Notes: generated from the letters alone by a model not told the origin. A DNA stretch of 64,000 nt from an uncultured Christensenella sp. (GCA_910578195.1 CAJTOY010000001.1:422040-486039); one strand, 5' to 3'; counted from the stretch's first letter, positions 12,756 through 35,268 are shown. Translations and numbers: made by a program.

Positions 12756-12759
12756 TTTA

Positions 12760-14968: not shown

Positions 14969-14989
14969 ATTATTGTTATTTAAGTTCAC

Positions 14990-15200: not shown

Positions 15201-15205
15201 AATAA

Positions 15206-15242
15206 AACTCCGAATACGCAAGTTGCGTGTTCGGAGTTTTTG
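15206..15242. terminator. Intrinsic terminator after the tRNA, also positioned after the convergent GH32 gene
   Basis: AACTCCGAATACGCAAGTTGCGTGTTCGGAGTTTTTG. Confidence 0.8.
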
Positions 15243-15245
15243 TAT

Positions 15246-16595
15246 TTATGATAAAACATCAAAACGTTGTACCGTACAATTGTCCGCGTTTACTTCGAGT
15301 TCAAGTCCGTCAGCGTCATAATCGGGATAAATGGTTGCGGAAAGAACTTTACCGTTTACGAATATTTCCGCTGAAAATTCGTCCAAAACAACGGTTATTT
15401 CCGTATCAACGCTATTATCGGTAAAAGGCATGCGGCGAATACCTGCCAGACTGTCGCCGTCGCGTTCTTTCCCTTCGATTTTTTCTCCGGAATGCGAACG
15501 GTCAAATACCCACTCTCCGTTTTTAAGGCAAAAGCTTGTATACATCTCACCCTTCTTACGCAGACGCAAGTTGAAATTTTTTATATTTTTTGCTTTGAAG
15601 TTTAATACGCCGATTTTTATATTATCGGAATATATACCGTTTATATCCTTTTCAAACACCTTTCGGGCGGATACCACGGGCGATTGCCACAGCTCCCCGT
15701 TTTTAATTTCAAGTTTTCGCGGTACAGTAAGCATACCCGCAAAACCGTACTTTTGCGAGGGAATATTTCTATCCCACATATTCAGCCATCCTATCATAAC
15801 GGGCTCATCGGCAAAGGACTGCGCGGCATAAAAATCAAAGCCGTAATCGATTATTTCGCTTTCGCCGAAATCCGCCTTGCCTTTTTCAATGTCAATCTTG
15901 CCCAAGCGGTAGAATGTGCTGTGAATATTTAAGTGCTTCGAGCCTTGCGCAGGTTGAAACTGCTCGCAATAAGTAAGCAATCCAAGCTCGCTATTATAGT
16001 CGGGGCACTCAATCATTATACCGCCGCTGTCACGGTCAAGCACGTCACATTCAAATTTCCAGTTGAATATATCTTTTGAAGAATACAACAATATTCTGCC
16101 TCTGCCGTCAATCTTGCGCGCGGCGACAAGGCAATATAAAACTCCGTTTTCTTCGAATATCTTCGGGTCGCGGAAGTCGCACGGCGAATATTCGGGCGGC
16201 AAATCTTTTTCACCTATAACAATTCCGTGCTTCGTAAAGTTAATACCGTCATCGGATGAAGCAAGAGCTTGAAGTTGCCTTATATTTTCTCCTCCGCCGT
16301 TTTCCTTAAAGCTTGTATATAGAAGCCACAGCTTATTATTCCAGACGATTGCGGTTCCCGAGAAGCAACCGTCGTCCTGACTGTCGGGAGCGATAGCTAT
16401 CGGCATTTGCTCCCACTTAGTCAAATCACGACTGACAACATGCCCCCAGTGCATTGGCCCCCAATATACGTTTTTAGAGTAATACTGAAAAAAGACGTGG
16501 TATTGTCCTTTGAATTTAACAAGCCCGTTCGGGTCGTTTATCCACCCGTTGCTTCCTGTTATATGAAATTTCGGTCTCAAATTTAAGTCTGACAT
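15246..16595 (-). CDS. Cytoplasmic GH32 beta-fructofuranosidase / sucrose-6-phosphate hydrolase-like enzyme
   Basis: No signal peptide. GH32 motifs are present: WINDPNG (nucleophile), FRDPKIF (RDP), IECPDY (acid/base). 449 aa. Confidence 0.9.
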   Translation of the reverse strand: MSDLNLRPKFHITGSNGWINDPNGLVKFKGQYHVFFQYYSKNVYWGPMHWGHVVSRDLTKWEQMPIAIAPDSQDDGCFSGTAIVWNNKLWLLYTSFKENGGGENIRQLQALASSDDGINFTKHGIVIGEKDLPPEYSPCDFRDPKIFEENGVLYCLVAARKIDGRGRILLYSSKDIFNWKFECDVLDRDSGGIMIECPDYNSELGLLTYCEQFQPAQGSKHLNIHSTFYRLGKIDIEKGKADFGESEIIDYGFDFYAAQSFADEPVMIGWLNMWDRNIPSQKYGFAGMLTVPRKLEIKNGELWQSPVVSARKVFEKDINGIYSDNIKIGVLNFKAKNIKNFNLRLRKKGEMYTSFCLKNGEWVFDRSHSGEKIEGKERDGDSLAGIRRMPFTDNSVDTEITVVLDEFSAEIFVNGKVLSATIYPDYDADGLELEVNADNCTVQRFDVLS

Positions 16596-16663
16596 TTAAT
16601 ATTCCTTAATGTACATTACTTTCACGCAGTTTTAAACTGCGTGAAAGTTTTGTTCAAATCAAT

Positions 16664-19600
16664 TTATTTTATTTTATCGCTGCCCAAAACCGCGCCTTCC
16701 GGTACGGAGTCGAGATTTGCACGGAAATCGTCCATTACTATACAACCGTAATCTTTCGTTGCGTTATCGACAACCTCAAAATAGCAAGACAATTCTTCGG
16801 TATTATCAAACTGATAATAGTAATGCACCATTACGGTATTCTGCGTATAGGCGTTATTGCGGAAAGTGGCAAGACACCGTCCGCCCGTTGCATATACTTT
16901 AATATAAACTTCGCTGTTATGCGCCGCACCGAATCGGAAAGATATTATACCGTTCTTTCTGAGAATAAATGCGCTTGAACGGACAATGCCGGTATTACCT
17001 TCCACGTTTACATTTTCCGATCCGTTATTGTAATGGAAAGTAAATAAGTATTTCCCGTCCTTTGTCGTTTCGTTAGTCTGATACCAATCTTCGGGAATTT
17101 CGTTTTCTACAACTTCACCGATTTCGCCAATCTTAGTCCAGCCGTCGAGATTTCCGGTTTCAAAGCTTCCGTTTTCCACAGAAAGGTATTCGTTTATATG
17201 ATTTACGGCGTTTGCGCTTCCTTCGGGAGCGGAGTCGAGATTTACTCTGAAATCGTCTGCGGTAAAGCAGCCCCAGACTTTTATCGCATTATCTACCACA
17301 CGGAAATAGCACAGCGTATCTTTCGTAAGTCCGTCAAGCTGATAACTGTAAGATTTGAGCTTACCGCCTTCTATATTGTCGTTGCGGAAAATTGCAATTA
17401 TAGAACCGTTTTCGGCATTTACAAGTTCCATAAATACGTTGCGGTTTCCTCCGCCGCCGAATTTGAACGACACATATTTACCTGCTTTGAGCACAAACAT
17501 ATTGCTCGTAAGCGTACCGATATTGCCCTCGCGGTTGATTTCGCCGTTATTCCAACTCCACCAGGAGAATAACTTTTCCCCTTCTTTACCGTATTCGTTG
17601 GCAGTATTGTCGGGATTACCGTTATTCCAATAACCCTTATCGGACGTAACAGCGCCTATATCGCCTAATACCGTCCAACCCGTCATATCTTTCTCAAAGC
17701 CGCCGTTTAAGATATCGTAAATTGTTGCGGGGCGTTCGGTTACCAATTCGGCAACGGTTAATTCGCTTTCGGGCGCTTCGGGATAATAGGTAACAAAACT
17801 GTCAACAAAGAACAGACCGTAATCGTTCACGCCGTTATCGACCAAACGTATATAAACCGTTTTGCCGATAAACTGCGAGAGGTCAGCCTTGTAGGCGAGC
17901 AACGTACAACCCCTTACATCCGTCTGCGAACTATCGTCCGAGAACGCGTTATTGTAATATCTTGCAAGTATATTACCCGTTTCCTTTTCTATAACGTCGA
18001 TGAATACCTTATCCGCATTTTTTGCACCGCCGAGTTTATAGGTTATCCAGCCAGAACCGCCGATTTTGAACGCGGAGCTTGTAAGGGTGCCCATCGCGCT
18101 TTCTTTTGCATTTCCGTTGAAATTGTATGCATTAAAGAAATTGCCGTCGTTATTGAAAGGAATATTTTCGTTCCAATACGTTTCATTGCTATTGACGCCG
18201 CCGAGGTCGGGATTGCTTAAAATCCAGCCGTCAAGACCGTTGTCAAAACCGCCGTTTGTAATGCGGTATGCGCGCGTATCTTTAATTTTCAATGTATAGT
18301 TATAGCTGAGCGACTTATCTTCGCCGTTGTGACTGAACGAAACCGTTACCGCAAAAACGACCTCGGTTGCCGTGTCCGTGTAGCTTTCATAATAATAGTT
18401 ATAAGAAGTTACGTCAAGCGTTATAGATTCGCCGTCCATAGTTACGGAATAACTTAATTCAAGTCCGCCTACGTTTTCGACATTGCTTGCAAAATCGATA
18501 ACAATATTTTCTTTGTTGTTTTCGGTAAACAAGTCGATACTTTTTTCTACCGCACCTTCCTTTAACGCAGGCGCCGTTTCCGTCGTGACCGTGACGGCGA
18601 TTTCAACCGTAAGCACAAGTTCGCCGTTATACTTGACAACAATAGAAACTTTTGCGCCGGTTACCTCTTTACTGCCTGCCGTCACCGTGAATTTACCCTC
18701 GGCAATTGCGCTTAAAGTAATTTCTTCGTTTTCGGTAGCGATTTCATAAGTTAAGTTACTTAAATTTTTGTCATCAACATAATCGGCAATCGTCAGCTCC
18801 TTACTGTTGCCTGCAAGCAGACGGAACGATTTTTCCGAATCTGCCTTTTCTTCGGGAATACGAACTTTAAGTTCGGCAAAAGCGCTTTCGATAGCGGTTT
18901 TTGCGTTGTCCACCTCCGCCTGCGTCGCGTAAACGTCATTAAGAATTGCTTTCGCAGCTTCTACTTTTGCGGTATAAGCGTTAAAGCTTTCTTCGGTGTA
19001 ATCGCCTTGTTCAGTCAAAGCGTTGTCGACAGCGGCTTTCAGCGCCGTTTTATCTGCTATCTGATTTTCGGCGGTATATGCGTTTGCGGGAAGCTCGGCT
19101 TCGTCTGCGTAGTACGTCACCAGCTCGTCGAAGTTGAAGAATCCGAATCCGTTTATGGCATTGTCGTGAAGTACGATTTTTAACGTTTCGCCCTCATACG
19201 CGCTAAGGTCTGCCACATACGTTACGAGATTGCACGCAAACTGCGATTTGCCTATCTCTTCCATTTGCCAGTTGCCGACATCCTCGAACTTAGTATTGCG
19301 CCAGATTGCAAGCACCGTGCCGTCCGCTTTTTCAAGCGTTATATAGCAATCTTTATTGCCCGCCGCGCCCAGCATGAAAGATATCTTGTTTATTCCGCCG
19401 ACCACAAACTCAGACGACGCAAGCGTTCCTTTTCCGCTTTCCTTATTAACGCCGGAGAAATATTTTCCTACGTTGAAGATAGGGAAGTTTTGCTCCCAGA
19501 ACGTACTCTGTTCGGTTATTTCACCGATTTCGCCTTCCATTGTCCAGCCTTCAAGTCCGCTGTCGAAATTACCGTTTACAGCCCTGTTAGCAGTCGTATC

Positions 19601-21592
19601 GCAAATTTTTAAGGTATAAGTGTAACCGACGCTTTTTTCGTTACCGTAACCTATAACGACGTCGAACACGGTTTCTATTGCGGTTTCGTCATAATCACCG
19701 TCAAGCTTATAAACCAGACGATTATCCGCGTCAAGCGTTACCGCTTCACCTTTCGAGGTAACGGTGTAAACGAGATTTTCAATTCCGTTGCTTTCAATAT
19801 TTTCTGTGAAGTCTATTGTCAGCTCGTCCTTATTTTCACATGTGTAAATATCCACAAAATGCGTTAACTGCGGCTGCTTGACAGTGGGTTGAAGCTCGCA
19901 TTTTACTTGCATCGTCAGCGTAACCGTAAGCTTGCTTTCGCCCTTGTATTTAACGGTTATAATTACGTTGACATCAACGTCCACTTCCGTTTCGCCTGCG
20001 GTAACAGTGAATTTACCGTTCTCTATTTCGCCGACTGTTATAAGCGCATTATCGGAAGTTATTTCATATGTGATTTCCGAAAGATTTTTCGAATCGATAT
20101 AATCGGAAATTGTCAGATTTTTCGAAAATCCCGTAAGAACTGGAATATTTTTAACTGCGCCGCCGACTTCTTCGGGAGTACGCAAAGTAAGATTTGCGAA
20201 AGCGCTTTCGATAGCGGTTTTTGCGCTATCCGCATCTGCCTGCGTCGCATAAACGTCATTAAGAATTGCTTTCGCCGCTTCTACTTTTTCGGTATAAGCG
20301 TTAAAGCTCTCTTCGGTGTAATCGCCTTGCGCTGTTAAAGCGTTGTCGACAGCGGTTTTCAGCGCCGTTTTATCGGCAAGCTGATTTTCGGCGGTATATG
20401 CGTTTTCGGGAAGCCCGTTTTCGTCTGCGTAGTACGTCACCAGCTCGTCGAAGTTGAAGAATCCGAATCCGTTTTCGGCATTGTCGTGAAGCACGATTTT
20501 TAACGTTTCGCCCTCATACGCGCTAAGGTCTGCCACATACGTTACGAGATTGCACGCAAACTGCGTTTTGCCTATCTCTTCCATTTGCCAGTTGCCGACA
20601 TCCTCGAACTTAGTATTGCGCCAGATTGCAAGCACCGTGCCGTCCGCCTTTTCAAGCGTTATATAGCAATCTTTATTGCCCGCCGCGCCCAGCATGAAAG
20701 ATATCTTGTTTATTCCGCCGACCACAAACTCAGACGACGCAAGCGTTCCTTTTCCACCCTCTTTATTAGCTCCTGAAAAATATTTTCCTACGTTGAAGAT
20801 AGGGAAGTTTTGCTCCCAGAAAGTATTTTTCTCGGTTATTTCGCCTATTTCGCCTTCCATTGTCCAGCCTTCAAGTCCGTTGTCAAAGTTGCCGTTTACA
20901 ACCTTGTATTGTGCGTTCAAGTCGGGTTCTTCGCGCGTATCGGTAACTTTTATATTCAACTTAAACTCTACCGTTTTGGCTGCGGCTGAAGGAGTTTCGC
21001 TATCCGTGTAAGAGGCGACTAACGTCAACTGTTTTTCGACGGGTTCTCCGTAAGAGACCGTAAGTTTGTTGCCTTCTATGGTAACCTTGTCGTCCTCTTC
21101 TTTCAATGAGAAGGTATAGATGAACGTGTTCGAGCCGGTTTTGGGCGAAAGGGTAACAGATTTGCTGTTGACGTTCACCAAATCATACTCTATATTCACG
21201 TCCTTAAATTCGGGCGCGGGCTTCTCCTCAGGTTGTTGTTTTTCGTTTACGGTAACCGCAAAGTTTATGGAAATTTCGTCGGCGCTTGCCGTAACGGTTG
21301 CATTTCCCTTTGAAACCGCCGTCACCGTTGCCGTGTTACCGTCAACCGTTGCCGTTGCTATACTGTCGTCCGAAGAATAAACCGTATAAGCAAATTCGGT
21401 ACCCTCTATCGAAATGTACTCCGATAAATCAATATTTTGACTTTCGCCCTCGGTAATCGTCAAAGCGATACCGTCCTTGATTTTTTCGGGTTTTTTCGTT
21501 TCGTCGTCATCTTTCTGATGATTGCACGCCGCGCATATAACAACGATGCTGCTAACCAATACAGAGAATAACGTCACTAAAAATTTTTTCAT
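16664..21592 (-). CDS. 1642-aa secreted or lipid-anchored non-catalytic surface protein with Ig-like domains, FIVAR-like linkers and five CBM-like beta-sandwich modules
   Basis: The signal peptide ends in ..VICAAC. It has a Big_2-like segment (SIATATVDGNTATVTAVSKGNATVTA) and two FIVAR-like helices (DKTALK..YTEESFNAYT..AKAILND..ATQA..AKTAIESAF). Five modules begin NG(N/G/S)F(D/E)..L(E/D)GW and contain GTL(A/T)SS.F..GG....F.LG. I recognise no catalytic motif and no LPXTG. Confidence 0.75.
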   Translation of the reverse strand: MKKFLVTLFSVLVSSIVVICAACNHQKDDDETKKPEKIKDGIALTITEGESQNIDLSEYISIEGTEFAYTVYSSDDSIATATVDGNTATVTAVSKGNATVTASADEISINFAVTVNEKQQPEEKPAPEFKDVNIEYDLVNVNSKSVTLSPKTGSNTFIYTFSLKEEDDKVTIEGNKLTVSYGEPVEKQLTLVASYTDSETPSAAAKTVEFKLNIKVTDTREEPDLNAQYKVVNGNFDNGLEGWTMEGEIGEITEKNTFWEQNFPIFNVGKYFSGANKEGGKGTLASSEFVVGGINKISFMLGAAGNKDCYITLEKADGTVLAIWRNTKFEDVGNWQMEEIGKTQFACNLVTYVADLSAYEGETLKIVLHDNAENGFGFFNFDELVTYYADENGLPENAYTAENQLADKTALKTAVDNALTAQGDYTEESFNAYTEKVEAAKAILNDVYATQADADSAKTAIESAFANLTLRTPEEVGGAVKNIPVLTGFSKNLTISDYIDSKNLSEITYEITSDNALITVGEIENGKFTVTAGETEVDVDVNVIITVKYKGESKLTVTLTMQVKCELQPTVKQPQLTHFVDIYTCENKDELTIDFTENIESNGIENLVYTVTSKGEAVTLDADNRLVYKLDGDYDETAIETVFDVVIGYGNEKSVGYTYTLKICDTTANRAVNGNFDSGLEGWTMEGEIGEITEQSTFWEQNFPIFNVGKYFSGVNKESGKGTLASSEFVVGGINKISFMLGAAGNKDCYITLEKADGTVLAIWRNTKFEDVGNWQMEEIGKSQFACNLVTYVADLSAYEGETLKIVLHDNAINGFGFFNFDELVTYYADEAELPANAYTAENQIADKTALKAAVDNALTEQGDYTEESFNAYTAKVEAAKAILNDVYATQAEVDNAKTAIESAFAELKVRIPEEKADSEKSFRLLAGNSKELTIADYVDDKNLSNLTYEIATENEEITLSAIAEGKFTVTAGSKEVTGAKVSIVVKYNGELVLTVEIAVTVTTETAPALKEGAVEKSIDLFTENNKENIVIDFASNVENVGGLELSYSVTMDGESITLDVTSYNYYYESYTDTATEVVFAVTVSFSHNGEDKSLSYNYTLKIKDTRAYRITNGGFDNGLDGWILSNPDLGGVNSNETYWNENIPFNNDGNFFNAYNFNGNAKESAMGTLTSSAFKIGGSGWITYKLGGAKNADKVFIDVIEKETGNILARYYNNAFSDDSSQTDVRGCTLLAYKADLSQFIGKTVYIRLVDNGVNDYGLFFVDSFVTYYPEAPESELTVAELVTERPATIYDILNGGFEKDMTGWTVLGDIGAVTSDKGYWNNGNPDNTANEYGKEGEKLFSWWSWNNGEINREGNIGTLTSNMFVLKAGKYVSFKFGGGGNRNVFMELVNAENGSIIAIFRNDNIEGGKLKSYSYQLDGLTKDTLCYFRVVDNAIKVWGCFTADDFRVNLDSAPEGSANAVNHINEYLSVENGSFETGNLDGWTKIGEIGEVVENEIPEDWYQTNETTKDGKYLFTFHYNNGSENVNVEGNTGIVRSSAFILRKNGIISFRFGAAHNSEVYIKVYATGGRCLATFRNNAYTQNTVMVHYYYQFDNTEELSCYFEVVDNATKDYGCIVMDDFRANLDSVPEGAVLGSDKIK

Positions 21593-21611
21593 TTTTTCCT
21601 CCCTAAAAATT

Positions 21612-24035
21612 TTATATCAGATTATCTGCAAGAACCGCATTTTCAGCAAGCTCGGGTTCAGATTCGTAATAGGTTATAAAGCTGTCGGCAAATATCAGCC
21701 CCCAATCTTTAACCGCATTATCGACAATTCGGATAACAAGCTCGTCTCCTAAATAATCGGATAAATCGGCCTTGTACTGCACCATATTTGCAAGACAACT
21801 GCCTTTTAAATCGTTTATATCTATACCGTTATCTTTGAATTCGGTATTGCCGAATTTAGCCACAACATTGTTTTGGGTCTTGTCGAAAATCTCTATATAG
21901 CAAAGTTCGGTGTTTGCGCCGCCGCCCAGCTTGAACGTAATCCAACCGCTGCCGCCGAGCGTAAAACTGCCGCTTTCCAAAGTGCCCGTCTGACTTTCTT
22001 CCCCTTTCCAGCCGTTGAAGAAATATTCGCCGTCCTTGTTAAACGGAAGCCCCTCGTTCCACCAAACGCTGTCGCTTGAAATTCCGCCTATGTTGCCGTT
22101 TAACGTCCAGCCTAATAAATCGCCTGTCTCGAAGTCTCCGTTATTAACCTGATAAATGTTGTCTTTACCGAGATATTCGAGTGTAAGCAAATCATTTGCG
22201 GTTATAGCTTTTTTAGGAACTGACTTTTCGGATTGGTAATAAGTGATAAAGCTGTCGGCAACCAAAAGCCCCCAATTATCCGTTGCGTTATCGGTAAGTT
22301 TCAGTTTTACCGTTCTGCCGATAAATTCGGAGAGGTCCGCTTTATACAAATTCATCGAGCCTTCGTTAAACGCGCTGTTATAATAACGCGTGAGCTCTTC
22401 GCCCGTTGCCGCGTCTATGACCGAAAGATAGCAAAGCTTCGAATTTTTTCCGCCGCCCAGCATATAAGTTATCCAGCCCGAGCCGCCGACTTCGAATTCC
22501 GAACTCGTCAATGTTCCCGTATTGCCTTCAAGCTTCTGTCCGTCGTGTTCAAAACCCGTAAACAGATAATTGCCTTTTTTGTTATAAGGTCTGTCAAGCC
22601 ACCAGCTTTCGCTTACGACTCTTCCTATATTGCCCGTTATATCCCAGTCTGTTAAGTCGCCCGTTTCAAAACCGCCGTTCTTGACCTGATATATACTGTC
22701 GGGCATAATATCGGCTTCGTTATCGTTGACAGCCGCATAAGATTCCTTGTCATACCACACGGGCTTTTCTTCCCAATACGTCTTTACGCTGTCCAGAGTT
22801 ATGCAACCAAGTTCGTCGCCCGAATTATTCTTATCTACGACCTCGATATACATCGTCTGTCCCAGATATTTGGAAAAATCCGCGTAGTACTGCACCATAT
22901 TCAAAAGACGCATACCGTTTGCAACGAACGGAAACTGGAAATTCCAATATTTAAAGTTGGAAAATCTTGCGACTTCTATATCGTTGCCCGTATTTTTCAA
23001 CATAAATCTGAGATACGTTTTACTGTTGTCGGAACAACCGCCCAGCTTCCAGCTTATATATCCCGAACCGCCGAGGACAAATTCAGACGAACGCATTACC
23101 CCCGTCGCCGACGGACGGTATTTTCCGTAGTGAAAATCGCCGTCGCGGGAATATGTGATATTTTCGTTCCACCAAACGCTTTCGGAATTGACTCCGTCAT
23201 GAGAAAATGCGTCGCCTTCGACTATCGTCCAACCGGCAAGCGAACCCGTTTCGAAACCGCCGTTCTTTATTTCATACTGCGAAGGCGCGTCCGTATCCGA
23301 AACGTAATCGCGCACTTTCGTGAAGAATTCGCCCTCTTGCTGGGCGTCAGCGTATTCGCCTACTCTGATATCGTCCACGGCGAAATAACCGTAATAATAG
23401 CTTTCGTCGTTATCGACTATGCGGATATATACCCTTTCGCCCGCATAAGCGGATAAATCCAGTGTGTATGCGCTGAAATTATCGGTATTGTATACTCCCG
23501 CGGCGTATTTGTCGGGATTGACGTAATCTTCCGTATGCTCGATAAAATATTCGTTTGTCTGCTTTGCAAGAAGTTTGTCGTCCGACGAACGGTATATTCC
23601 CACGAAGCACAGCTTTTCTTTACTCTTTAATGCGGCATTTTCGCCCTTCCCTATCGTGAGCGCACCGCCGGCAAGCTTCATGCTGACCATGCCGTCCTCG
23701 GGAAGCACAAACTCGGTGGAACGTATCGCGCCGGTACGCGCGCCCGAATAAGCGCCGTCAAAGCCTTTTCCGCTGAGATACCAGTTCCCCGTTGCGTTGA
23801 CGGGCAGTTGATTATGGTTGGCGTCGTTTTCATAGGTGAAAGTTCTGTCGGACATAACGCAATTGTCGTCGAACGCATTGCCGTATTCCACAGTCCAGCC
23901 GCTTAAATCCGCGCTTTCGAAGCCGCCGTTGACGGGACCTGCGGGAACTTCGCGCGGCGTGCTTGCACAAGCCGTACCTGCAACCGCAGCGCCAAAACAT
24001 AATAAACTCAGCAAAGTTATAAGTGTTTTTCGCAT
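21612..24035 (-). CDS. 807-aa secreted non-catalytic protein built from four CBM-like beta-sandwich modules
   Basis: Signal peptide MRKTLITLLSLLCFGAAVAGTAC. The four modules start VNGGFESADLSGWT, IKNGGFETGSLAGWT, VKNGGFETGDLTDWD and VNNGDFETGDLLGWT. They are the same family as in the 1642-aa neighbour. AAGGGGGG RBS. Confidence 0.75.
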   Translation of the reverse strand: MRKTLITLLSLLCFGAAVAGTACASTPREVPAGPVNGGFESADLSGWTVEYGNAFDDNCVMSDRTFTYENDANHNQLPVNATGNWYLSGKGFDGAYSGARTGAIRSTEFVLPEDGMVSMKLAGGALTIGKGENAALKSKEKLCFVGIYRSSDDKLLAKQTNEYFIEHTEDYVNPDKYAAGVYNTDNFSAYTLDLSAYAGERVYIRIVDNDESYYYGYFAVDDIRVGEYADAQQEGEFFTKVRDYVSDTDAPSQYEIKNGGFETGSLAGWTIVEGDAFSHDGVNSESVWWNENITYSRDGDFHYGKYRPSATGVMRSSEFVLGGSGYISWKLGGCSDNSKTYLRFMLKNTGNDIEVARFSNFKYWNFQFPFVANGMRLLNMVQYYADFSKYLGQTMYIEVVDKNNSGDELGCITLDSVKTYWEEKPVWYDKESYAAVNDNEADIMPDSIYQVKNGGFETGDLTDWDITGNIGRVVSESWWLDRPYNKKGNYLFTGFEHDGQKLEGNTGTLTSSEFEVGGSGWITYMLGGGKNSKLCYLSVIDAATGEELTRYYNSAFNEGSMNLYKADLSEFIGRTVKLKLTDNATDNWGLLVADSFITYYQSEKSVPKKAITANDLLTLEYLGKDNIYQVNNGDFETGDLLGWTLNGNIGGISSDSVWWNEGLPFNKDGEYFFNGWKGEESQTGTLESGSFTLGGSGWITFKLGGGANTELCYIEIFDKTQNNVVAKFGNTEFKDNGIDINDLKGSCLANMVQYKADLSDYLGDELVIRIVDNAVKDWGLIFADSFITYYESEPELAENAVLADNLI

Positions 24036-24045
24036 ATTGCCCCCC

Positions 24046-26535
24046 TTAATCCCCTAAATTTCCGACATTGCCGTAATATGGCGGCGTTACCGTTTCCGAG
24101 TACGCGCTGCCCATTCGGTAAACTTCAAACGAGGTAAAACGTATTCCCGAATTGTTGTCGAATACTCTTAAATAATCCGAGTCGCCGTATTTTGGATAAA
24201 CTCTTGTGGTAAAACTCATTACTCCGTTTACATACACTTCAAGCATCGAGCGGTCCAGAAGAATTATTACGCTGAATTCGCGCGATGTGTTTTTCCAGGT
24301 ATGGCTCGGAGTTTTTGAAACGTAATCCAAAAGGGAAGCCTTATTTCTCTCTATATATACTCCTTTTTCTGAAAAGCAAATATCCGTGCGCTCGGTCATA
24401 GTATCCACTGTATTGGGATTGTAGCGGACGCTTATTCCGCCCGAATAAACTTCTGCGTTCGGTTCAAGCGTAAACGTTGCCCTTATTTCCAGCAAATCGC
24501 CCCGTATAGACGATATTTCCGAATTGAGCGCGTCCGCCGTTTTACCGTCGCCCGAATAGCTGTAAAGGGTTTCTTCTCTTACGCTTTCCAGCTCCTTTAT
24601 GGGTTCGCGGATAACTTCGTTTCCGTTGTCCGCAAGCCACAGTTCGAGCGGAATTGCAAAGTTATGCGCCCAACCGGCGTCGTAATTTTGCGCCGTGCCC
24701 GCGTCCTTACCTTGCGCTATGGCGTAAATAACCGTTCTGCCTTGCTCGTATGCGGTTTTACCGGCGGCAATATCTTCTTCCGTAAGGAAGCAGAAACCGT
24801 TCTGACCCGTGTAGACTCCGCGCCCCATATCAAACAAGCGGGGCTTATGGTCGTCGGGAATGAAACGGCAGGTTTCTTTGTCAAACGTACCTATCCAGTA
24901 ATAGCACTCCACGACGTATCCGTCCACAGTGTATTGAGGACAGTCGAAAAGTATATATTTCGTCTTTGAACCGTCCTTTGTTGAAATGGGAAGCATTACA
25001 ACACATTCCCAGTGCGCGCCTTGTTCGGGATAAAGTCCGTAATCGCACTCGTACAGATAGCCTCTGTATTCCCACTCGCGCATATCGGCGGACGTATACA
25101 CGTTTGCAGACCCGCCTTTGCCCGGAATTGACGTGGAAACCATCATATAATATGTGCCGTCGTCGTACCATACGAAGGGGTCGCGGAACTGGTCGCGTTC
25201 GCCCTGCGAGTCGTCGGAGGGCTGAGTAATCACAACTTTATCTTCTACAATCCACTCTGTAAGATACGGGTCGTCGGGGTTTGCCGCATGGGCAAACGCC
25301 ACATTCTGACCGCTCCACGAGCTCGTGTTGGTTCCCGCCGTTATTACAAGCCACGGCGTGCCGTCGGGACCGATACAAGCGCCGCCCGTCCATACGCCTT
25401 CGGGGCATATGCCCGCCGTAGGAACGACGGCGTCCTTAACGTATTCCCAATGAATCATATCGTCGCTGACTATATGTCCCCAGCGTATTTGCGACCAATA
25501 CGGTCCCGCGGGGTTATGCTGGTAAAACACATGGTATTTGCCCTTGTAATAAAACGGCGAATGAGGTTCGTTCATCCAAACCGCGGGAGGCAATCCGTGA
25601 TATTGCGGGCGGTATCTGTCGCCCTCGTAAACGGAGCTGTCAAGCGCAATATCCTTCCAGTCGAGCGCGGGATGCCCTTCAACTGCGTCGGTATCCGAAT
25701 ATATTTCTTTTATCTCTTTGGGTGAAAGCGAAGTATCGTAAACGTTAACTTCGTCCAGCAGTCCGCTTACAAGCTGACGGCTTATGCCGAATTCTTGTAC
25801 GGGGTTTGTAAACCTGCCGATATATAAAGGGTCTTCCGAAGCGACTATACGGGTTTCCGCAAGCTCGGGAATAATAGACTCGTAAGAAGGCACGCCGTTA
25901 TAAAACAGACCTATGTATCCGGTTTTGCTGTCGAAGCTGACGGCTATGTGCGACCATTGGTACAGAGGGAGCGTGTTTACGGGGTCATAAAAAGCCCAAA
26001 CGTAATCTTCGTCGGTTTCATTGTTGTGCAAAGCAAGCTGAATTCCCCAAAGTCCCAGTCTGCCGTAACCCAAAAGAAAACCTTCGCCCGCCTCCACGTT
26101 GCCTTTATTCATTACGGAAGTTAGTCTGGGATTGCCCGCCGCGTCCGAAACATCGCCGTAATTGGGAAGATTTTCAAACACCCTCGGAGCTACCCACGCC
26201 GAAAGCGTAATTGCCGAAGCGGGAGTTTTGAAATCTTTATTGGTTATGCTGTTTGAAAAGCCGTCCATATACAGCGCTTTTCCTTTTACGCCGGTTTTCC
26301 TTAAAGGGTCTGACGGCGCTTTGAAAATTTTGTCTGCGTTTTCCTCATTGAAAACGTAATTGATTTTATATTCTTTATTGCTTACGGCGTCTTTCGTCAT
26401 GCTTCCGCTTTCTTCTTCGAATGAATAAGATAAAACCAGATTGTCGGCTTTTTCGGAATTTTTACAAGCGGTAGCCATTCCCAAACTGCTCAGGCACAAC
26501 GCCGTAACGACTGCTATTGCTTTTTTGAATTTCAT
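24046..26535 (-). CDS. Extracellular lipoprotein: LamG/ConA-like domain plus GH32 domain with a variant nucleophile motif
   Basis: The start is moved to ATG 26535 (MKFKKAIAVVTALCLSSLGMATAC, GTGAGG RBS). LamG_3-like block: ALYMDG..TLSAWV..LLDEVNVYDTSLSPKEI. GH32 blocks: YRPQYHGLPPAVWMNEPHSPFYYKGKYHVFYQHNP, FRDPFVW, HWECVVM. Confidence 0.8.
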   Translation of the reverse strand: MKFKKAIAVVTALCLSSLGMATACKNSEKADNLVLSYSFEEESGSMTKDAVSNKEYKINYVFNEENADKIFKAPSDPLRKTGVKGKALYMDGFSNSITNKDFKTPASAITLSAWVAPRVFENLPNYGDVSDAAGNPRLTSVMNKGNVEAGEGFLLGYGRLGLWGIQLALHNNETDEDYVWAFYDPVNTLPLYQWSHIAVSFDSKTGYIGLFYNGVPSYESIIPELAETRIVASEDPLYIGRFTNPVQEFGISRQLVSGLLDEVNVYDTSLSPKEIKEIYSDTDAVEGHPALDWKDIALDSSVYEGDRYRPQYHGLPPAVWMNEPHSPFYYKGKYHVFYQHNPAGPYWSQIRWGHIVSDDMIHWEYVKDAVVPTAGICPEGVWTGGACIGPDGTPWLVITAGTNTSSWSGQNVAFAHAANPDDPYLTEWIVEDKVVITQPSDDSQGERDQFRDPFVWYDDGTYYMMVSTSIPGKGGSANVYTSADMREWEYRGYLYECDYGLYPEQGAHWECVVMLPISTKDGSKTKYILFDCPQYTVDGYVVECYYWIGTFDKETCRFIPDDHKPRLFDMGRGVYTGQNGFCFLTEEDIAAGKTAYEQGRTVIYAIAQGKDAGTAQNYDAGWAHNFAIPLELWLADNGNEVIREPIKELESVREETLYSYSGDGKTADALNSEISSIRGDLLEIRATFTLEPNAEVYSGGISVRYNPNTVDTMTERTDICFSEKGVYIERNKASLLDYVSKTPSHTWKNTSREFSVIILLDRSMLEVYVNGVMSFTTRVYPKYGDSDYLRVFDNNSGIRFTSFEVYRMGSAYSETVTPPYYGNVGNLGD

Positions 26536-26542
26536 ATTAACC

Positions 26543-27469
26543 TCACATTTTAAGTCCCGCAGAACCGAAACCCTGAACAATGTATTTTTGCGCCGCAACG
26601 TAAATAATGAATATGGGTATACTCGTAATTACAAGCGAAGCCATTATTTCGCCCGTCGTGATGCCCTCCATGCTTTGAATTGTAGTCAAAGCGGCTTGTA
26701 TGGGCATTAAGGGCCACTCCCCCTCGCTTGCCTGAGGCAAAATCATTGACGGCCAGAGATAGTCGTTCCAAACTCCTATAAAGCAGAACACCGCAACGGT
26801 TGCGACAATTGGCTTTGAAAGCGGGAGTATAACTTTAAAGAAAATACCTAACGTACTCGACCCGTCCATGCGCGCCGCCTCCTCGTATTCCTTGGGGATA
26901 CTCTGAAAAAACTGCATGAACAGAAAAATATTGAATATGCTTATAGCCGACGGAAGTATTATGCCGAGTATCGATGCGGTTTGTTTGAGCCCGAGCATTA
27001 TTTTAACTATCGAATACAAAGGTATTATAGAGGTTTCCACGGGTACGATAATCAAAAAGATTATCAGCGCTGAAAACAGTCTTTTACCGGGGAAGTTCAT
27101 TTTCGCCATAACGTATCCGGCTAAACCGTTCACGAGCACGTTAAGAACTATTACTATTACCGCATACAAAAAGCTGTTTAACGCGTATTTCCATATACTG
27201 TAATTCGTTAAAACACTTCCGTAGTTATCGAACATTGTGCCGAGATGCGCAAAATCGGGCAGAAACATCGCAAGACTGCCTGCGCTTTCCGCATACGCGG
27301 ACTCGCTTTTTGTCGAAGTTGCAAGCATGTAAATTATAGGAAACAAAAATAACAGCGAAAGAACTATACCGCATAAGTAGTAAATAACTTCTTTGGTTAT
27401 CCTTTTTCCCGTCATGCGATTGTTTAACGGGATTGTCTTACCGTCTACCGTCAATGTCTTTTCTTTCAT
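26543..27469 (-). CDS. Carbohydrate ABC transporter permease (MalG-like)
   Basis: 6-TM binding-protein-dependent permease with the EAA loop EYEEAARMDGSSTLGIFFKVILP. Confidence 0.9.
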   Translation of the reverse strand: MKEKTLTVDGKTIPLNNRMTGKRITKEVIYYLCGIVLSLLFLFPIIYMLATSTKSESAYAESAGSLAMFLPDFAHLGTMFDNYGSVLTNYSIWKYALNSFLYAVIVIVLNVLVNGLAGYVMAKMNFPGKRLFSALIIFLIIVPVETSIIPLYSIVKIMLGLKQTASILGIILPSAISIFNIFLFMQFFQSIPKEYEEAARMDGSSTLGIFFKVILPLSKPIVATVAVFCFIGVWNDYLWPSMILPQASEGEWPLMPIQAALTTIQSMEGITTGEIMASLVITSIPIFIIYVAAQKYIVQGFGSAGLKM

Positions 27470-27470
27470 T

Positions 27471-28442
27471 TTATTTCTCCCTGAACGCCCGACGCTGAAT
27501 TAACGTAATGGTTCCTATGACGATAGTCATAATGAGCGCTACCGCCGAAGAATAACCGACCCAGCGATATGTGTAGCCTTGCGTATACATATAATAGCTT
27601 AAAGTCACGGTATGGTCCTGATAGCCCGTCATTAACATAGGCTGCGTCATAATTCTGCACGCACCGATAAATACCGTAATTATTATGTATACGAAAGTCG
27701 AACGCAGTCCCGGCCAAGTTACGGTTTTAAATTTTTGCCATGCGTTTGCTCCGTCGAGAGACGCCGCTTCGTATAAATCGTTGCGTATATTCGATAAGCC
27801 CGACGTGAATATAAGCATCTGAAAACCGCAACCCTGCCATGCGCTTAAAATTATAATGCAAAGCATTGCCGTTTTCGGGTCGCGCAGCCAGTCGTGCGGC
27901 TCCGCCCCGAACAGACCTAAAAACGAGTTCAGAAGTCCCGTTTCGGAAGGCGAGAGAATTTGCAGCCACAAAAACGAAGTTACGCTCAGCGATATTACAA
28001 CGGGCGCAAAAAAGCAAACCTTAAATATTTTTACTCCGCGGACTTTTCTGTTTGTAAACAGCGCAAGCCCCAACGCCATGCATATCTGCAAGGGCACTAC
28101 GCCTACCACGAAAATAAGTGTATTTATTATTGCGTGATATAAAGTTCCTTTTTCGCCTATTTCCTTGAAAACGTTTGCAAAGTTATCTAAGCCGATAAAA
28201 TTTATATCGTTCGGCGTCAACAGATAATAATCGGTAAACGCATAACCGAGCGAGTATAAAATAGGCAACAATATAAACAGAAATGCCAGCAGCACCGCGG
28301 GCAACAGCATTAAATATGCTGTTGCCGACGAACGTATACGGTACTTTTGGTTTTTCTTTTTTGCCCTGACTATATCCCATACCGCAAGCCCTGCAAAGCC
28401 GGCGGCGAATATTGCCAGAATTATGAGAGTAGACCCCGTCAT
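27471..28442 (-). CDS. Carbohydrate ABC transporter permease (MalF-like)
   Basis: EAA loop DLYEAASLDGANAWQKFKTVTWP. 323 aa, multi-TM. Confidence 0.9.
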   Translation of the reverse strand: MTGSTLIILAIFAAGFAGLAVWDIVRAKKKNQKYRIRSSATAYLMLLPAVLLAFLFILLPILYSLGYAFTDYYLLTPNDINFIGLDNFANVFKEIGEKGTLYHAIINTLIFVVGVVPLQICMALGLALFTNRKVRGVKIFKVCFFAPVVISLSVTSFLWLQILSPSETGLLNSFLGLFGAEPHDWLRDPKTAMLCIIILSAWQGCGFQMLIFTSGLSNIRNDLYEAASLDGANAWQKFKTVTWPGLRSTFVYIIITVFIGACRIMTQPMLMTGYQDHTVTLSYYMYTQGYTYRWVGYSSAVALIMTIVIGTITLIQRRAFREK

Positions 28443-28454
28443 ATTTGCTCCCCC

Positions 28455-29762
28455 TTAACTTCTGTGAAGCTTGTTCATTTCCGATTGTAAAGTATTTGTC
28501 TGCGTATTGATAATTTCGGTCAGATTGCCGTCTTTGAGGCTGTAAATAATCTGATTGAAACAGGTCGAGAAAGTCGGATAAGCTACCGTTGCGGGACGGG
28601 CTTTGCCCGTTAACTGCAACTGTTTCAAAAGTACTTCTTCGGGTGAACCCGCAGCATAGTTCTTGTTCACGGATTTGCGCGCGGCAATCATACCCGTCGC
28701 GGTGGTTATCGCGTCCGAACTTTCAGTCGAAGTGAGCCAAAGCAACAACTCCTTTGCCGCCGATTTATCTTTGTGATGATTGTTGGTTATACCGTAACAC
28801 CAGCTTCCGGTTGCGCTTGCCTTTGCCGTGCCCTGCGGATAGGGTAACAGTCCCCAGTCGTCGCGGCTTGCAAACGTTTCCTTATACTTATTTTCGATTT
28901 CGGGTATCGTCCAGCCCGAGGAAAGAAACATTCCCACTTTACCGGTGTAGAAATCGGTAGCACCTATGGAGTACGACGTGTAGCCTTCCGACACAAGGTC
29001 TTTCAAAAACTGAAAACCGCTTTGCGTTGCGGAAGAATTGAAGTAACCCGTAGCGGTAAAGCCGTCCTCCGACGTAAACGAGCCGCCCGCCGCATAAATG
29101 AACGGATACAACAAATATGTTGCGGTTTCGTCTTTGGTTGCGTCGAGGCGCATATCCACCGCGGTAGTACCTGCGTTTTTGAGCTTTGCGCAGACTTGCT
29201 TGAACTGGTCGAAAGTCCAGGGATTTTCCACCGTGTAAGAAGATACGTCTATATTCGCCGCCCTGAATATCTTTTTATTGTAATAGAAACCCGCGCTGGA
29301 CTCCTGTATGGGCAGTCCGTAAAGCTTGCCGTCATACTTGTTGAGCGACAAAAAGTCGTCCTGAACGTCTTGCGAAACAAGCGAAGAAATATCGTAAAGC
29401 AATTTGGAATTTGCATATGAAGCGCAATTAGGAGCGTCGAACGTTATTATATCCGGCAAAGTACCTTCAATCTGCTTGTTCAAAAGCTCCGTTTCATAGC
29501 CCGCCGCACCGGTCGTACGCGCCTGATATGTAGCCGAGGCCTTGATTTTCTTGTCTTTGTAAGCGGTGTTAAAAGCGTCTATTCTCTTTTTGTAAGCCTG
29601 CCCCTCGGTTGATTTTTCGTCAACATGGAACATAATCTTTACGATTGTATTGCCCGAGCTGTCGACTTCTCCGTTATCGCCGCCGCCACCGCAAGCTGCA
29701 AATCCGCAAGCCATAACCGTAGAAACTGCGAGCATTGAAATTGCCTTGAATAATTTTTTCAT
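28455..29762 (-). CDS. Extracellular sugar-binding lipoprotein of the ABC transporter
   Basis: Signal peptide with lipobox (..GFAACGGGG). Family-1 SBP size (435 aa) and composition. Sits next to the two permeases. TAAGGAG RBS. Confidence 0.85.
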   Translation of the reverse strand: MKKLFKAISMLAVSTVMACGFAACGGGGDNGEVDSSGNTIVKIMFHVDEKSTEGQAYKKRIDAFNTAYKDKKIKASATYQARTTGAAGYETELLNKQIEGTLPDIITFDAPNCASYANSKLLYDISSLVSQDVQDDFLSLNKYDGKLYGLPIQESSAGFYYNKKIFRAANIDVSSYTVENPWTFDQFKQVCAKLKNAGTTAVDMRLDATKDETATYLLYPFIYAAGGSFTSEDGFTATGYFNSSATQSGFQFLKDLVSEGYTSYSIGATDFYTGKVGMFLSSGWTIPEIENKYKETFASRDDWGLLPYPQGTAKASATGSWCYGITNNHHKDKSAAKELLLWLTSTESSDAITTATGMIAARKSVNKNYAAGSPEEVLLKQLQLTGKARPATVAYPTFSTCFNQIIYSLKDGNLTEIINTQTNTLQSEMNKLHRS

Positions 29763-29865: not shown

Positions 29866-30837
29866 TTATTTTGTGGTTGCGCCTTTTACGAACGCAGTTT
29901 TAAGTTCAGTTCTTACTTTCACATTTTCGCCCTTGATTTTTTTTATCAAAAGTCTGACAACCTCGCGCGCCATCTCCTCAATGGGTTGCTCGACGCAGGT
30001 AAGCAAGCGGTTGTTGTTCCATTGTTTGAAGGCGCCGTCGTAAGATACAATCTGAATATCTTCCGGAATACGTTTACCTCTTTGCAACAATGCTTCATAC
30101 AGCACCTGCGCCAGCGAATAACCCGAAGCAAAAACTCCGTCAAGGTCGGAATAATTATCCAAAAATGCCGAAACAACAGCATTTTCTTCACCGTGCAGAA
30201 TAACTTCGTTAACGGACCGAACGGGCAAACCGTGTTTTTCCATTGTGTCTTTATACGCCCTTTCTCTTTCTAAAACCTCGGACGATACAATGGGTTTGGA
30301 ACCTATATATCCTATATTTTTACAACCCGCTTGAAGTAAGTACTCTATTGCGTTGCAAGTCGAATTATAGTTATCCGAAGTTACATAAGGAATTTCTTCG
30401 CTGAAACAGCGGTCTATCGAAACTATGGGACAATCTTTAAGTTCCTTGCTGTCGTGCGCAAAATGCGTAACGAACACTGCCCCGTCAACCTCTCTGCGGT
30501 GAATTCTGTCTATTATGTCCGTTTCTTTCTGAACGCGCTGCTGGGAAGATACCAAAATCACGGAATAGCCGTATTTGTCCGCCTCGTCCTCTACATAGTA
30601 AGCTAATTTCGCAAAAAACGGGTGGTTAATGACGGGAACGAGCAACGCTATTATACGCGTCTCGTTCTTACGCAGCTTTGCCGCCATTTTGTTAGGTGAA
30701 AACTGTAAAGTCGTCATTGCGCTTTTTACTTTCTCGCGTGTAGCGGGTTTAACCGATTTCTCGTCGTTTATAACCCTTGAAACAGTGCCTATGCCGACGC
30801 CGGCAAACTCCGCCACGTCTTTAATCGTCGACGCCAT
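29866..30837 (-). CDS. LacI-family transcriptional regulator
   Basis: N-terminal HTH TIKDVAEFAGVGIGTVSRVIN plus a periplasmic-binding-protein-like core. 323 aa. Overlaps the upstream GH32 gene by 17 nt. Confidence 0.9.
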   Translation of the reverse strand: MASTIKDVAEFAGVGIGTVSRVINDEKSVKPATREKVKSAMTTLQFSPNKMAAKLRKNETRIIALLVPVINHPFFAKLAYYVEDEADKYGYSVILVSSQQRVQKETDIIDRIHRREVDGAVFVTHFAHDSKELKDCPIVSIDRCFSEEIPYVTSDNYNSTCNAIEYLLQAGCKNIGYIGSKPIVSSEVLERERAYKDTMEKHGLPVRSVNEVILHGEENAVVSAFLDNYSDLDGVFASGYSLAQVLYEALLQRGKRIPEDIQIVSYDGAFKQWNNNRLLTCVEQPIEEMAREVVRLLIKKIKGENVKVRTELKTAFVKGATTK

Positions 30838-34351: not shown

Positions 34352-35268
34352 TTTATATCCCCTTTATTGATTGCTCGGTTTATTGCGTCCAAATCGGGCA
34401 GACAGTCTATCGCACCCCTTCCGAGAGTATTGAGCGCCCCGCACACGTTTGCGAAAGAAAAAATTTCGTTAAGCTTTTCCTCAGTCCACTGCGACGGCGG
34501 AATTCTGTCGAGCCCGGAAAGTATACCGCCGTAAAACGCGTCGCCCGCGCCCGTTGTGTCAACGGGTTTTACTTTTATGGAAGGAACAATGTTCGATTTG
34601 CCTTTGAAGCGCCATTTACTGCCGTTTCCGCCGAGACTTATGCAAACAAGCTTGTCGCAAAGTTCGTTTTCGATATAACTTTCCGTAAATACTTTAACTT
34701 CGTCGTCGGAAAACTTTACAACGTCCGCATATTTAATAATTTCTTTATATACCTTGACGGCGCTTTCCTTGTCTTTGAAAATGTCCGTTCTGTAATTGAT
34801 ATCGAAACTAATCAGTTTGCCTTGCGAACGCGCAAGCTCAATAATTCTTTTTGCGTAATCGAACCCCTCTTTTTCCGAAAGCATAAGCGAACCGATATGA
34901 ACTATTTTCGCTTCCGCTATTTGGTTTTCCGAAAGATAAGGCAAATTGTAATCGGCAGTGTTTTTTCTGTAAAAGCAGAAAGACCTTTCTCCGTTTTCGT
35001 CAAGCTCGACAAAGGCAAGCGTTGTGTTGCGGTTGTTGTCGCGTTCAATCAATACGCCGTCCAGTTTCCGGGCGTTAGCGAAATTTATTAAAAAATCACC
35101 TATCAAATCATTTCCGACACTGCCTGCAAATTTGACCTCGGCGCCGAATTTTTTCGCGGCGCAAGCCACGTTAAAGGGCGCGCCGCCCGCTTTACGTTCG
35201 TACCATAACGAACCGTCTTTTACCGTTCCTATCATGTCGGCTAAAATTTCGCCAATGCAAAGTATCAT
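34348..35268 (-). CDS. PfkB-family fructokinase
   Basis: The N-terminal ILCIGEILADMIG and C-terminal DTTGAGDAF motifs are typical of PfkB sugar kinases of the fructokinase type. ATGA-type overlap with the downstream GH32 gene. Confidence 0.8.
   Translation of the reverse strand: MILCIGEILADMIGTVKDGSLWYERKAGGAPFNVACAAKKFGAEVKFAGSVGNDLIGDFLINFANARKLDGVLIERDNNRNTTLAFVELDENGERSFCFYRKNTADYNLPYLSENQIAEAKIVHIGSLMLSEKEGFDYAKRIIELARSQGKLISFDINYRTDIFKDKESAVKVYKEIIKYADVVKFSDDEVKVFTESYIENELCDKLVCISLGGNGSKWRFKGKSNIVPSIKVKPVDTTGAGDAFYGGILSGLDRIPPSQWTEEKLNEIFSFANVCGALNTLGRGAIDCLPDLDAINRAINKGDIK

Follow-up and report, generated by a model that had tools for sequence, protein, structure and literature searches.

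Within the fructan-utilization locus of an uncultured gut Clostridia bacterium, most closely related to genomes with the label Christensenella or Christensenellaceae, two adjacent genes encode large proteins that public annotations list as 'hypothetical protein'. What are these proteins built from, and what would they do between genes for GH32 enzymes? The original prediction saw in them nine copies, five and four, of an unassigned β-sandwich module that would form a new fructan-binding CBM family. Here we analyze the stretch of DNA that carries both genes, 64,000 nucleotides long (the window, to which all coordinates refer); these and all other features described below lie on its minus strand.

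Two proteins and their repeated module

Both ORFs have the coordinates and lengths originally given: protein A (1642 aa) extends over 16664..21592, and protein B (807 aa) over 21612..24035. Protein A opens with a signal peptide and a probable lipobox (..VICAA-C23), followed by an Ig-like N-terminal region with a Big_2 domain (aa 54-106; 21275..21433), by two units of 440 aa, each composed of a module, a FIVAR stretch and an Ig-like domain, and by three contiguous modules. The five modules, which we assign to CBM38, are A1 (aa 228-392; 20417..20911), A2 (aa 668-832; 19097..19591), A3 (aa 1108-1276; 17765..18271), A4 (aa 1291-1458; 17219..17722) and A5 (aa 1469-1633; 16694..17188); A2 is included in an internal duplication of 1320 nt and is 93% identical to A1. 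FIVAR (PF07554) is matched in two stretches, at 48.4 bits: one lies in the second spacer (aa 847-908; 18869..19054), and the other is placed by the 440-aa period, at ~aa 407-468, one period upstream. Protein B consists of a signal peptide that ends in a probable lipobox (..VAGTA-C23) and of four CBM38 modules: B1 (aa 31-230; 23346..23945), which carries two insertions and diverges most among the nine, B2 (aa 253-426; 22758..23279), B3 (aa 448-605; 22221..22694) and B4 (aa 627-795; 21651..22157). In Pfam scans, Big_2 and the two FIVAR stretches are the only matches of protein A, and protein B has no domain match at all; both proteins are thus free of a catalytic domain, as had been proposed. 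Lipidation and surface display would follow from their N-termini, lipidation being a prediction since the lipoboxes are non-canonical (C-A-A-C in protein A, G-T-A-C in protein B).

Exactly nine instances of the opening motif, NG[GNSD]F[ED], are present, five in protein A and four in protein B; the motif originally described holds, except that it lacked the D of NGDFE in B4. The repeated module is likewise real, with a wider range of lengths (158-200 aa) than the 170-180 aa expected. The nine copies are 22-49% identical to each other, apart from A1 and A2, and share 13 invariant columns (N, G, F, W, G, G, S, F, N, Y, D, G, D). An HMM built solely from them, run on the six-frame translation of the whole window, recovers these nine modules only, each with an E-value of 1e-54 to 1e-70. 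The repeat pattern is far beyond chance, and the count of five plus four is borne out by motif and HMM alike.

The AF2 model of B4 (pLDDT 91, pTM 0.88) is mainly β, with ~11 strands and three short helices, and its best Foldseek matches include CBM jelly-rolls (the porphyran CBM 8xmz, CBM27, CBM22, CBM6, CBM4), in agreement with the β-sandwich of CBM type that had been predicted. The TM scores to CBM jelly-rolls are ~0.5 (0.4-0.55 for the CBM4_9, CBM6 and CBM22 types), a likeness that is structural only, and gingipain adhesin and MAM domains score similarly. The best match, 8xmz (E=1e-5, TM 0.56/0.67), is a porphyran-binding CBM of a T9SS-secreted protein, which has the opening NGDFETGNLSGWT strand motif in common with the window modules but is 15% identical to them, resembles them in sequence in the first 30 residues only and binds another ligand; judged from the model, the kinship is one of fold only. 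No PDB chain matches the modules past the opening motif.

Assignment to CBM38

No Pfam or NCBIfam model scores above threshold on any of the nine modules. PF02018, which with its relatives represents CBM4_9, CBM6 and CBM22, scores 12 bits (cutoff 25.9) on an 18-residue stretch of the opening motif, and NTTRR-F1 (NF033675) scores 30.8 bits (cutoff 70) on 20 residues, again of the opening motif only. The original prediction had named two families for comparison, CBM66 and CBM38. CBM66, presumably the DUF1080/PF06439 type of Pfam, is the other fructan-binding β-sandwich module that is found appended to GH32, in the exo-levanase SacC of B. subtilis; it is a different family, and even at E<=10 PF06439 matches neither A nor B nor any module taken singly, while it does match the neighboring 1176-aa GH32.

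For CBM38 the outcome is the opposite. CAZy families rest on sequence, and the criterion for CBM38 is significant full-length similarity to the repeats of characterized cycloinulo-oligosaccharide fructanotransferases (CFTases); such similarity is found for the window modules, both in the alignments of B4 and with the HMM. Stand-ins for the founding sequence, AAG47946.1, are the CFTases of P. polymyxa (1333 aa, which we take to be the length of the P. macerans CFTase as well) and B. circulans (BAA24360.1). Over its whole length, B4 is 51% identical to the P. polymyxa CFTase at residues 75-245 (172 alignment columns, E=6e-56), with weaker matches at the C-terminal repeat and at the second, degenerate one; it also aligns with the two N-terminal repeats of the enzyme from B. 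circulans (residues 57-227 and 243-413, 50-51% identity). The HMM, built from window modules only, finds these CFTases with domain E-values of 1e-46 to 3e-50, computed for a database of 1.8 billion sequences. All nine modules align with CFTase repeats, at 19-52% identity: B2, B3 and A3 reach 44-48% against the N-terminal repeats (A3 44-46%), whereas A1/A2, A4, A5 and B1 reach 29-36% against these validated repeats, for which the values of several modules span 19-36%.

These repeats correspond to a region with an established name: CBM38, the inulin-binding module, was originally described from N-terminal repeats of the Paenibacillus (Bacillus) macerans CFTase. In that enzyme, AAG47946.1, CBM38 (formerly X39) spans residues 32-389, forms two β-sandwiches and binds inulin and levan with micromolar affinity (PMC10076258); an inulin-binding module has been located in the N-terminal region of the same enzyme (PMC8291819). 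On the P. polymyxa stand-in, the nine-module profile marks residues 75-246 and 260-397, within or adjacent to 32-389. It also marks residues 38-209, 222-393, 405-557 and, after GH32, 1330-1493 of the family member P0149, in the same order and at nearly the same coordinates as the published dbCAN string of a D. raffinosedens enzyme, CBM38(44-189)+CBM38(221-367)+CBM38(409-527)+GH32+CBM38(1313-1448). On sequence grounds, the nine modules are new members of a known family, CBM38; the claim of a new one does not hold, as the assignment is to a characterized CBM family, and one that had been named as a candidate.

The CFTases of P. macerans CFC1, P. polymyxa and B. circulans, all of GH32, share with the window locus the module family, including the columns N..F..GW, G, G..S..F, N, VD, G and D, the arrangement of modules in tandem and the link to GH32 fructan chemistry. 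The CFTases, however, are secreted enzymes of aerobic soil Bacillales in which the modules extend a GH32 catalytic core, and their second or third repeat is shortened and degenerate; in the gut anaerobe, four and five modules, all full-length, make up whole non-catalytic, putative lipoproteins, whose genes have independent GH32 genes and those of an ABC importer as neighbors.

The locus and its relatives

The genes for A and B lie inside a tight same-strand operon, in which intergenic distances on the upstream side are 7-19 nt. A cytoplasmic GH32 of 449 aa without signal peptide (15246..16595) follows 68 nt downstream of protein A, and an extracellular GH32 that carries LamG at its N-terminus, is 829 aa long from its ATG and has a lipoprotein signal (MKFKK..LGMATAC) is encoded 10 nt upstream of protein B (24046..26535). 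Further upstream are an ABC importer (26543..29762), consisting of a solute-binding lipoprotein (28455-29762), which also starts with a Cys-containing, lipobox-like signal, and two permeases (27471-28442 and 26543-27469); a LacI-family regulator (29866..30837); a third GH32, of 1176 aa (30821..34351), which has a hydrophobic signal or anchor at its N-terminus and PF06439 (DUF1080) at its C-terminus; and, at the upstream edge, a PfkB-family sugar kinase, probably a fructokinase (34348..35268). The block between the outer GH32 genes contains no enzyme specific for another glycan, and the locus has no TonB-dependent transporter or SusD, its transporter being the ABC solute-binding protein with its two permeases. 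This is the GH32/ABC setting that had been described, completed by the kinase.

Among 22 species-level gut MAG loci, the order GH32-LacI-SBP-permeases-GH32-B-(A-like)-GH32 is kept wherever the contig extends far enough, and so is the position of A and B between two GH32 genes. The positions of B1 and B2 are retained in 22 of 22 orthologues (62-92% and 71-89% identity, respectively). The A-type partner is more variable: its module number shifts quickly between species, from none to five per gene, it is sometimes represented by two genes, and it has length alleles within one species. The exact sequence of protein B is present in 218 collection blocks, the named samples being mouse-gut metagenomes.

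Fusion of CBM38 to GH32 is a feature of the family relatives and not of proteins A and B. GH32N/GH32C is present in five of the six scanned relatives with large non-module regions, and in CFTase-type enzymes one module always follows directly after the GH32 core; in the profile search, 13 of the 149 best family representatives carry GH32 and 136 do not, so that non-catalytic poly-CBM38 lipoproteins appear to be common. Two distant non-catalytic members, P0119 and P0036, are also found in GH32/ABC/LacI/PfkB loci. The proposed link to fructan use is thus borne out by module-GH32 fusions in relatives and by conserved synteny. A literature search returned no characterization or binding report for A, B or any non-catalytic CBM38 array.

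Fructan capture and its alternatives

If the modules were a previously unassigned fructan-binding family, distinct from both CBM38 and CBM66, the lack of Pfam and NCBIfam matches at threshold, of PDB matches past the opening motif and of any label other than 'hypothetical protein' would be expected. The labels are, however, explained by the lack of a Pfam or NCBIfam model and of a PDB structure for CBM38 itself, a gap in Pfam and no sign of novelty, and the full-module identity of 50-51% to characterized N-terminal CFTase repeats, the equation of that region with CBM38 in the literature and the agreement between published dbCAN and profile layouts render this reading extremely improbable. Descent from CBM38 would still allow some or all modules to have been retargeted, to another glycan (host mucin, a plant or microbial polysaccharide) or to a role as adhesin or scaffold that docks the GH32s or the cell to particles. 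FIVAR and Ig-like domains, as present in protein A, are typical of Gram-positive adhesins, rapid change in module number between species, as in the A-type partner, is common in adhesins, gingipain adhesin and MAM domains are among the Foldseek matches, and the modules are highly divergent, from each other and, for several, from the validated repeats. We nevertheless consider retargeting unlikely: A and B are embedded in a tight fructan operon, keep their place between two GH32 genes in all MAG contigs that extend far enough downstream, have no enzyme for another glycan within their block, and both contain modules close to the validated inulin-binding repeats (B2, B3, B4 and A3; 44-52%).

A role in GH32 chemistry itself, with the modules as accessory domains rather than capture devices (positioning chains for transfructosylation or processivity, for example) and A and B as trans cofactors of the neighboring GH32s, would fit the invariable module after the GH32 core of CFTase-type enzymes; this C-terminal repeat has reportedly been tied to cyclization by deletion studies, and a chain-positioning role is said to have been proposed for it. 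The window modules are nearer to the N-terminal binding repeats (up to 52% identity) than to the C-terminal one (23-32%), however, and nothing in this analysis points to protein-protein contacts, so we regard this role as very unlikely.

The best reading, and in our judgement quite probably the correct one, is that A and B are non-catalytic surface lipoproteins whose CBM38 arrays capture fructan for the neighboring GH32/ABC system. The surface glycan capture originally suggested is supported indirectly, by the GH32 fusions, the 22 MAG loci and the probable lipoprotein signals, and both proteins are probably fructan-capturing. The arrays would hold β-fructan chains (inulin and/or levan) multivalently at the cell surface; the polymer would be cut by the two secreted GH32s of the operon, the 829-aa LamG-GH32 lipoprotein and the 1176-aa enzyme; the oligosaccharides would be imported via the solute-binding lipoprotein and the two permeases; and breakdown would be completed by the PfkB kinase together with the cytoplasmic GH32 of 449 aa, under LacI control. 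Fructan binding and ligand preference are predictions for these modules, and the ligand of A1/A2, A4, A5 and B1 could differ, because of their low identity to the validated repeats.

The comparison with SusE/SusF-type SGBPs of Bacteroidota PULs, such as BT1761 of the levan PUL, stands as a functional analogy: these, too, are non-catalytic lipoproteins of a glycan utilization locus, with tandem β-sandwich domains, presumed to tether polymer near surface enzymes and a transporter. It goes no further, as the A/B locus has an ABC transporter in place of a SusC/SusD pair, there is no outer membrane, and the modules belong to a defined CBM family that has neither the SusE/F fold nor a sequence relationship to it. 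More tentatively, and with somewhat less than even confidence, we propose that poly-CBM38 lipoproteins without catalytic domain are a widespread Gram-positive fructan counterpart of SGBPs, with a fixed four-module core, a partner that expands and contracts, and modules of differing specificity.

CBM38 and its ligand class were already known and surface capture is the expected role, so the gain is incremental. The assignment turns two 'hypothetical proteins' and hundreds of relatives into predicted fructan-binding surface proteins, in a family for which Pfam and NCBIfam offer no model and no structure has been solved, and about nine in ten of its best representatives in the profile search are non-catalytic arrays rather than enzyme appendages. 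If the broader proposal is true, B would be the fixed core, with B1 and B2 keeping their positions in at least 22 species, specificity would differ among the divergent modules (between inulin and levan, or between chain ends and internal sites), and core and variable partner together would form a tunable, multivalent fructan 'net'. For gut ecology, the assignment to CBM38 points to a possible way for Christensenellaceae-like Clostridia to compete for inulin-type prebiotics.

The modules and their assignment to CBM38

Proteins A (1642 aa, 16664-21592) and B (807 aa, 21612-24035) are encoded by open reading frames on the minus strand, separated by 19 nt. Five copies of the opening motif NG[GNSD]F[ED] are present in A and four in B, nine in all, corresponding to modules A1 (residues 228-392), A2 (668-832), A3 (1108-1276), A4 (1291-1458) and A5 (1469-1633), and B1 (31-230), B2 (253-426), B3 (448-605) and B4 (627-795). 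They are 158-200 residues long, have 13 invariant columns in their alignment and share 22-49% pairwise identity, except for A1 and A2 (93%); when the 64-kb window is scanned in six frames, an HMM built from them matches exactly these nine, each with an E-value of 1e-54 to 1e-70. Pfam detects no catalytic domain in either protein, and indeed no domain at all in B; in A, it detects Big_2 and two FIVAR stretches. The reading frames, motif count, HMM scan and Pfam results thus bear out nine repeated modules, five plus four, in two proteins free of catalytic domains, as the original prediction had it. Both N-termini carry a signal peptide ending in a lipobox-like motif, with Cys23 in each.

With whole proteins and every single module as queries, no Pfam or NCBIfam model exceeds its threshold on any module. 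The sub-threshold matches (CBM_4_9, 12 bits; NTTRR-F1, 30.8 bits against a cutoff of 70; LTD; and, on one module, G7C_C) fall on the NGxFE..GW opening, and none of them assigns the modules to a family. Against PDB sequences, the module profile has a sole match, 8xmz, confined to the first 30 residues; a literature search on 8XMZ returned nothing. The AF2 model of B4, from an alignment of 36 sequences (pLDDT 91, pTM 0.88), is mainly β-strand with three short helices. A Foldseek search of this model against the PDB has CBM jelly-rolls among its best matches (the 8xmz porphyran CBM, CBM27, CBM22, CBM6 and CBM4), with TM-scores near 0.5 and identities of 17% or less, and also returns gingipain adhesin, MAM and ephrin-receptor domains. 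Model and search agree with the proposed β-sandwich nature of the module, and the predicted fold of B4 is that of a typical CBM without a close solved relative; the CBM matches are at the level of the fold, and these structural neighbors are not accepted as evidence of function.

At E≤1e-3 an exhaustive profile search yields 1,850 cluster representatives, of which 315 remain at E≤1e-30; most are multi-module proteins. GH32N/GH32C is present in five of six relatives that have large non-module regions, and several of the GH32-bearing relatives share a recurrent layout of three to four N-terminal modules, LamG, GH32 and one C-terminal module. Because this layout recalls cycloinulo-oligosaccharide fructanotransferases (CFTases), these were tested directly; a search from one such relative returns the Bacillus circulans CFTase (BAA24360.1, O52973) and, as a cluster at 90% identity, P. 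polymyxa CFTases including AAL82574.1. An HMM built from the window modules alone, with E-values scaled to a database of 1.8 billion sequences, matches the B. circulans enzyme at residues 57-228 (1e-46), 242-413 (2e-47) and 1331-1491 (3e-17), and the P. polymyxa enzyme at 75-246 (3e-50), at a degenerate repeat around 260-397, and at 1168-1330 (3e-17). In pairwise comparison, B4 is 51% identical to residues 75-245 of the P. polymyxa CFTase (172 columns, E=6e-56) and 50-51% identical to both N-terminal repeats of the B. circulans CFTase; it is nearer to these repeats than to any other module of the window.

In the literature, the inulin-binding family CBM38 (once named X39) corresponds to residues 32-389 of the P. 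macerans CFTase AAG47946.1, which comprise two β-sandwiches and bind inulin and levan with low-micromolar affinity (PMC10076258); the inulin-binding module of this enzyme is its N-terminal region (PMC8291819). The repeat directly before the LamG/GH32 core of characterized CFTases (residues 260-397 of P0350 and 423-563 of P0311) is a shortened, degenerate CBM38. Neither the WW..N loop nor the GG motif is present in it, and its identity to the window modules is 19-31%; it follows that one intact and one degenerate copy would lie within the inulin-binding region published as 32-389. For a D. raffinosedens enzyme, dbCAN gives CBM38(44-189)+CBM38(221-367)+CBM38(409-527)+GH32(808-1121)+CBM38(1313-1448) (PMC7355431). 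The window profile finds the same layout, in what is a comparison of layouts and not of the same protein, in P0149, a relative from assembly GCA_900175155.1 (modules at 38-209, 222-393, 405-557 and 1330-1493; GH32 at 818-1304). From these comparisons, made with the P. polymyxa and B. circulans CFTases as stand-ins for AAG47946.1, the nine modules are almost certainly CBM38.

The original proposal of a new CBM family is refuted, given the closeness of B4 to characterized CFTase repeats from the region that is CBM38 in the literature: comparison with CBM38 leads to a family already characterized. The other named candidate, CBM66, is rejected, as PF06439 (DUF1080), which we take to be the CBM66 type, matches the neighboring 1176-aa GH32 and none of the nine modules. 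What remains are new, uncharacterized members of a known family, in an expected role.

The surrounding fructan locus

A and B lie inside a tight fructan operon, in which all genes from the PfkB kinase to a 449-aa GH32 are on the same strand as A and B (minus). These are the kinase (34348-35268), a GH32 of 1176 aa (30821-34351), a LacI regulator (29866-30837), a solute-binding protein (SBP) with a lipoprotein signal peptide (28455-29762), two permeases (27471-28442 and 26543-27469), a LamG-GH32 with a lipoprotein signal peptide (24046-26535) and, beyond B and A, the 449-aa GH32 without a signal peptide (15246-16595). At its N-terminus, the 1176-aa GH32 has a hydrophobic segment; it also has a C-terminal PF06439 domain and a weak Shr-like HID match. 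If PF06439 is indeed CBM66, fructan-binding modules of two different families are present in the locus, carried by separate proteins. For the LamG-GH32, the mechanical reading frame starts at a TTG and has 850 aa (24046-26598), overlapping the permease gene; in five metagenome contigs, the gene is called from the ATG at 26535, giving 829 aa and revealing the lipoprotein signal MKFKK...LGMATAC.

A scan that played no part in defining the operon finds promoter-like sites about 2.5 standard deviations over the shuffle mean and terminator-like sites at shuffle level. Two long, perfect hairpins are present: one with a 14-bp stem (16618-16648) inside the 68-nt gap between A and the cytoplasmic 449-aa GH32, which may act as a terminator or attenuator, and one with a 17-bp stem (15204-15240) between the stop codon of this GH32 and a tRNA-Pro (15124-15200, plus strand), which could be a bidirectional terminator. 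Between the kinase and an ABC ATPase-like gene (36507-37952) is a 408-aa reading frame (35265-36491) with no Pfam match at E≤1e-5. Upstream of the fructan locus (38191-45301) is a separate pair of surface enzymes, a protein of 1743 aa in which Pectinesterase, Listeria-Bacteroides repeat and Big_3 domains are found and a 615-aa GDSL-like lipase/esterase; the pair suggests a pectin-deesterification module. G+C is 31% at positions 1-2000, compared with 41-52% across the remaining window.

Conservation across gut genomes

Protein B is unchanged in 218 collection blocks, the named samples being mouse-gut metagenomes. With B alone as the query, orthologues of 57-81% identity are found in 22 species-level MAGs, whose labels read Christensenella, Christensenellaceae or uncultured Clostridia and whose hosts include mouse, rabbit, roe deer and sheep. 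As far as each MAG contig reaches, the gene order is constant (GH32-LacI-SBP-permease-permease-GH32-B-(A-like)-GH32); the distant non-catalytic proteins P0119 (seven modules) and P0036 (one module) likewise lie within GH32/ABC/LacI/PfkB loci. All 22 orthologues have four modules, of which the first and second are orthologous to B1 (62-92%) and B2 (71-89%) in every species; the third and fourth evolve faster and sometimes change type. The identity of B1 to the validated CFTase N-terminal repeats (29-31%) is among the lowest of the modules, yet B1 is strongly kept among orthologues; this suggests a distinct, maintained role for it, possibly with a different ligand preference.

The A-type partner varies. 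Across the 22 loci L006-L027 (compared at positions of about 12400-19000), it has no gene in four (L019, L020, L022 and L027); elsewhere it has one to five modules, and it is split into two or three genes in L011, L015 and L017. A itself contains an internal duplication of 1320 nt (440 aa) at 18272-20911 (residues 228-1107), the unit being CBM38, FIVAR and an Ig-like part; the first 240 or so residues (module and FIVAR) are about 90% identical between the units, the Ig-like part being far more diverged. Other assemblies contain a 1202-aa allele (P0121 cluster) with the same N-terminus and one unit fewer; the duplication is therefore a copy-number polymorphism. Non-catalytic arrays dominate among the 149 best family representatives: 136 are without GH32, and a crude pattern picks out a lipobox-like N-terminus in at least 79 of these.

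Proposed function and relation to known systems

A and B would be lipid-anchored at the cell surface, where their CBM38 arrays may bind β-fructan multivalently and keep the polymer beside the two secreted GH32s; the products would be imported by the ABC system, and catabolism completed by the cytoplasmic GH32 and the kinase. The closest known counterparts are the CBM38 repeats of CFTases, which belong to the same module family but differ in packaging: they are enzyme appendages in soil Bacillales, whereas A and B are whole, predicted non-catalytic lipoproteins in a gut anaerobe. The suggested comparison with SusE/F-type surface glycan-binding proteins holds as a functional analogy but no further, because the locus has no SusC/D.

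Literature searches found no study of non-catalytic CBM38 arrays; every mention of CBM38 they returned concerns either CFTases or a label in an annotation. Three side findings are of modest value: CBM38 has neither a Pfam or NCBIfam model nor a solved structure, its strongest members in the profile search are mostly predicted non-catalytic lipoproteins, and the number of copies in the A-type partner array varies widely.
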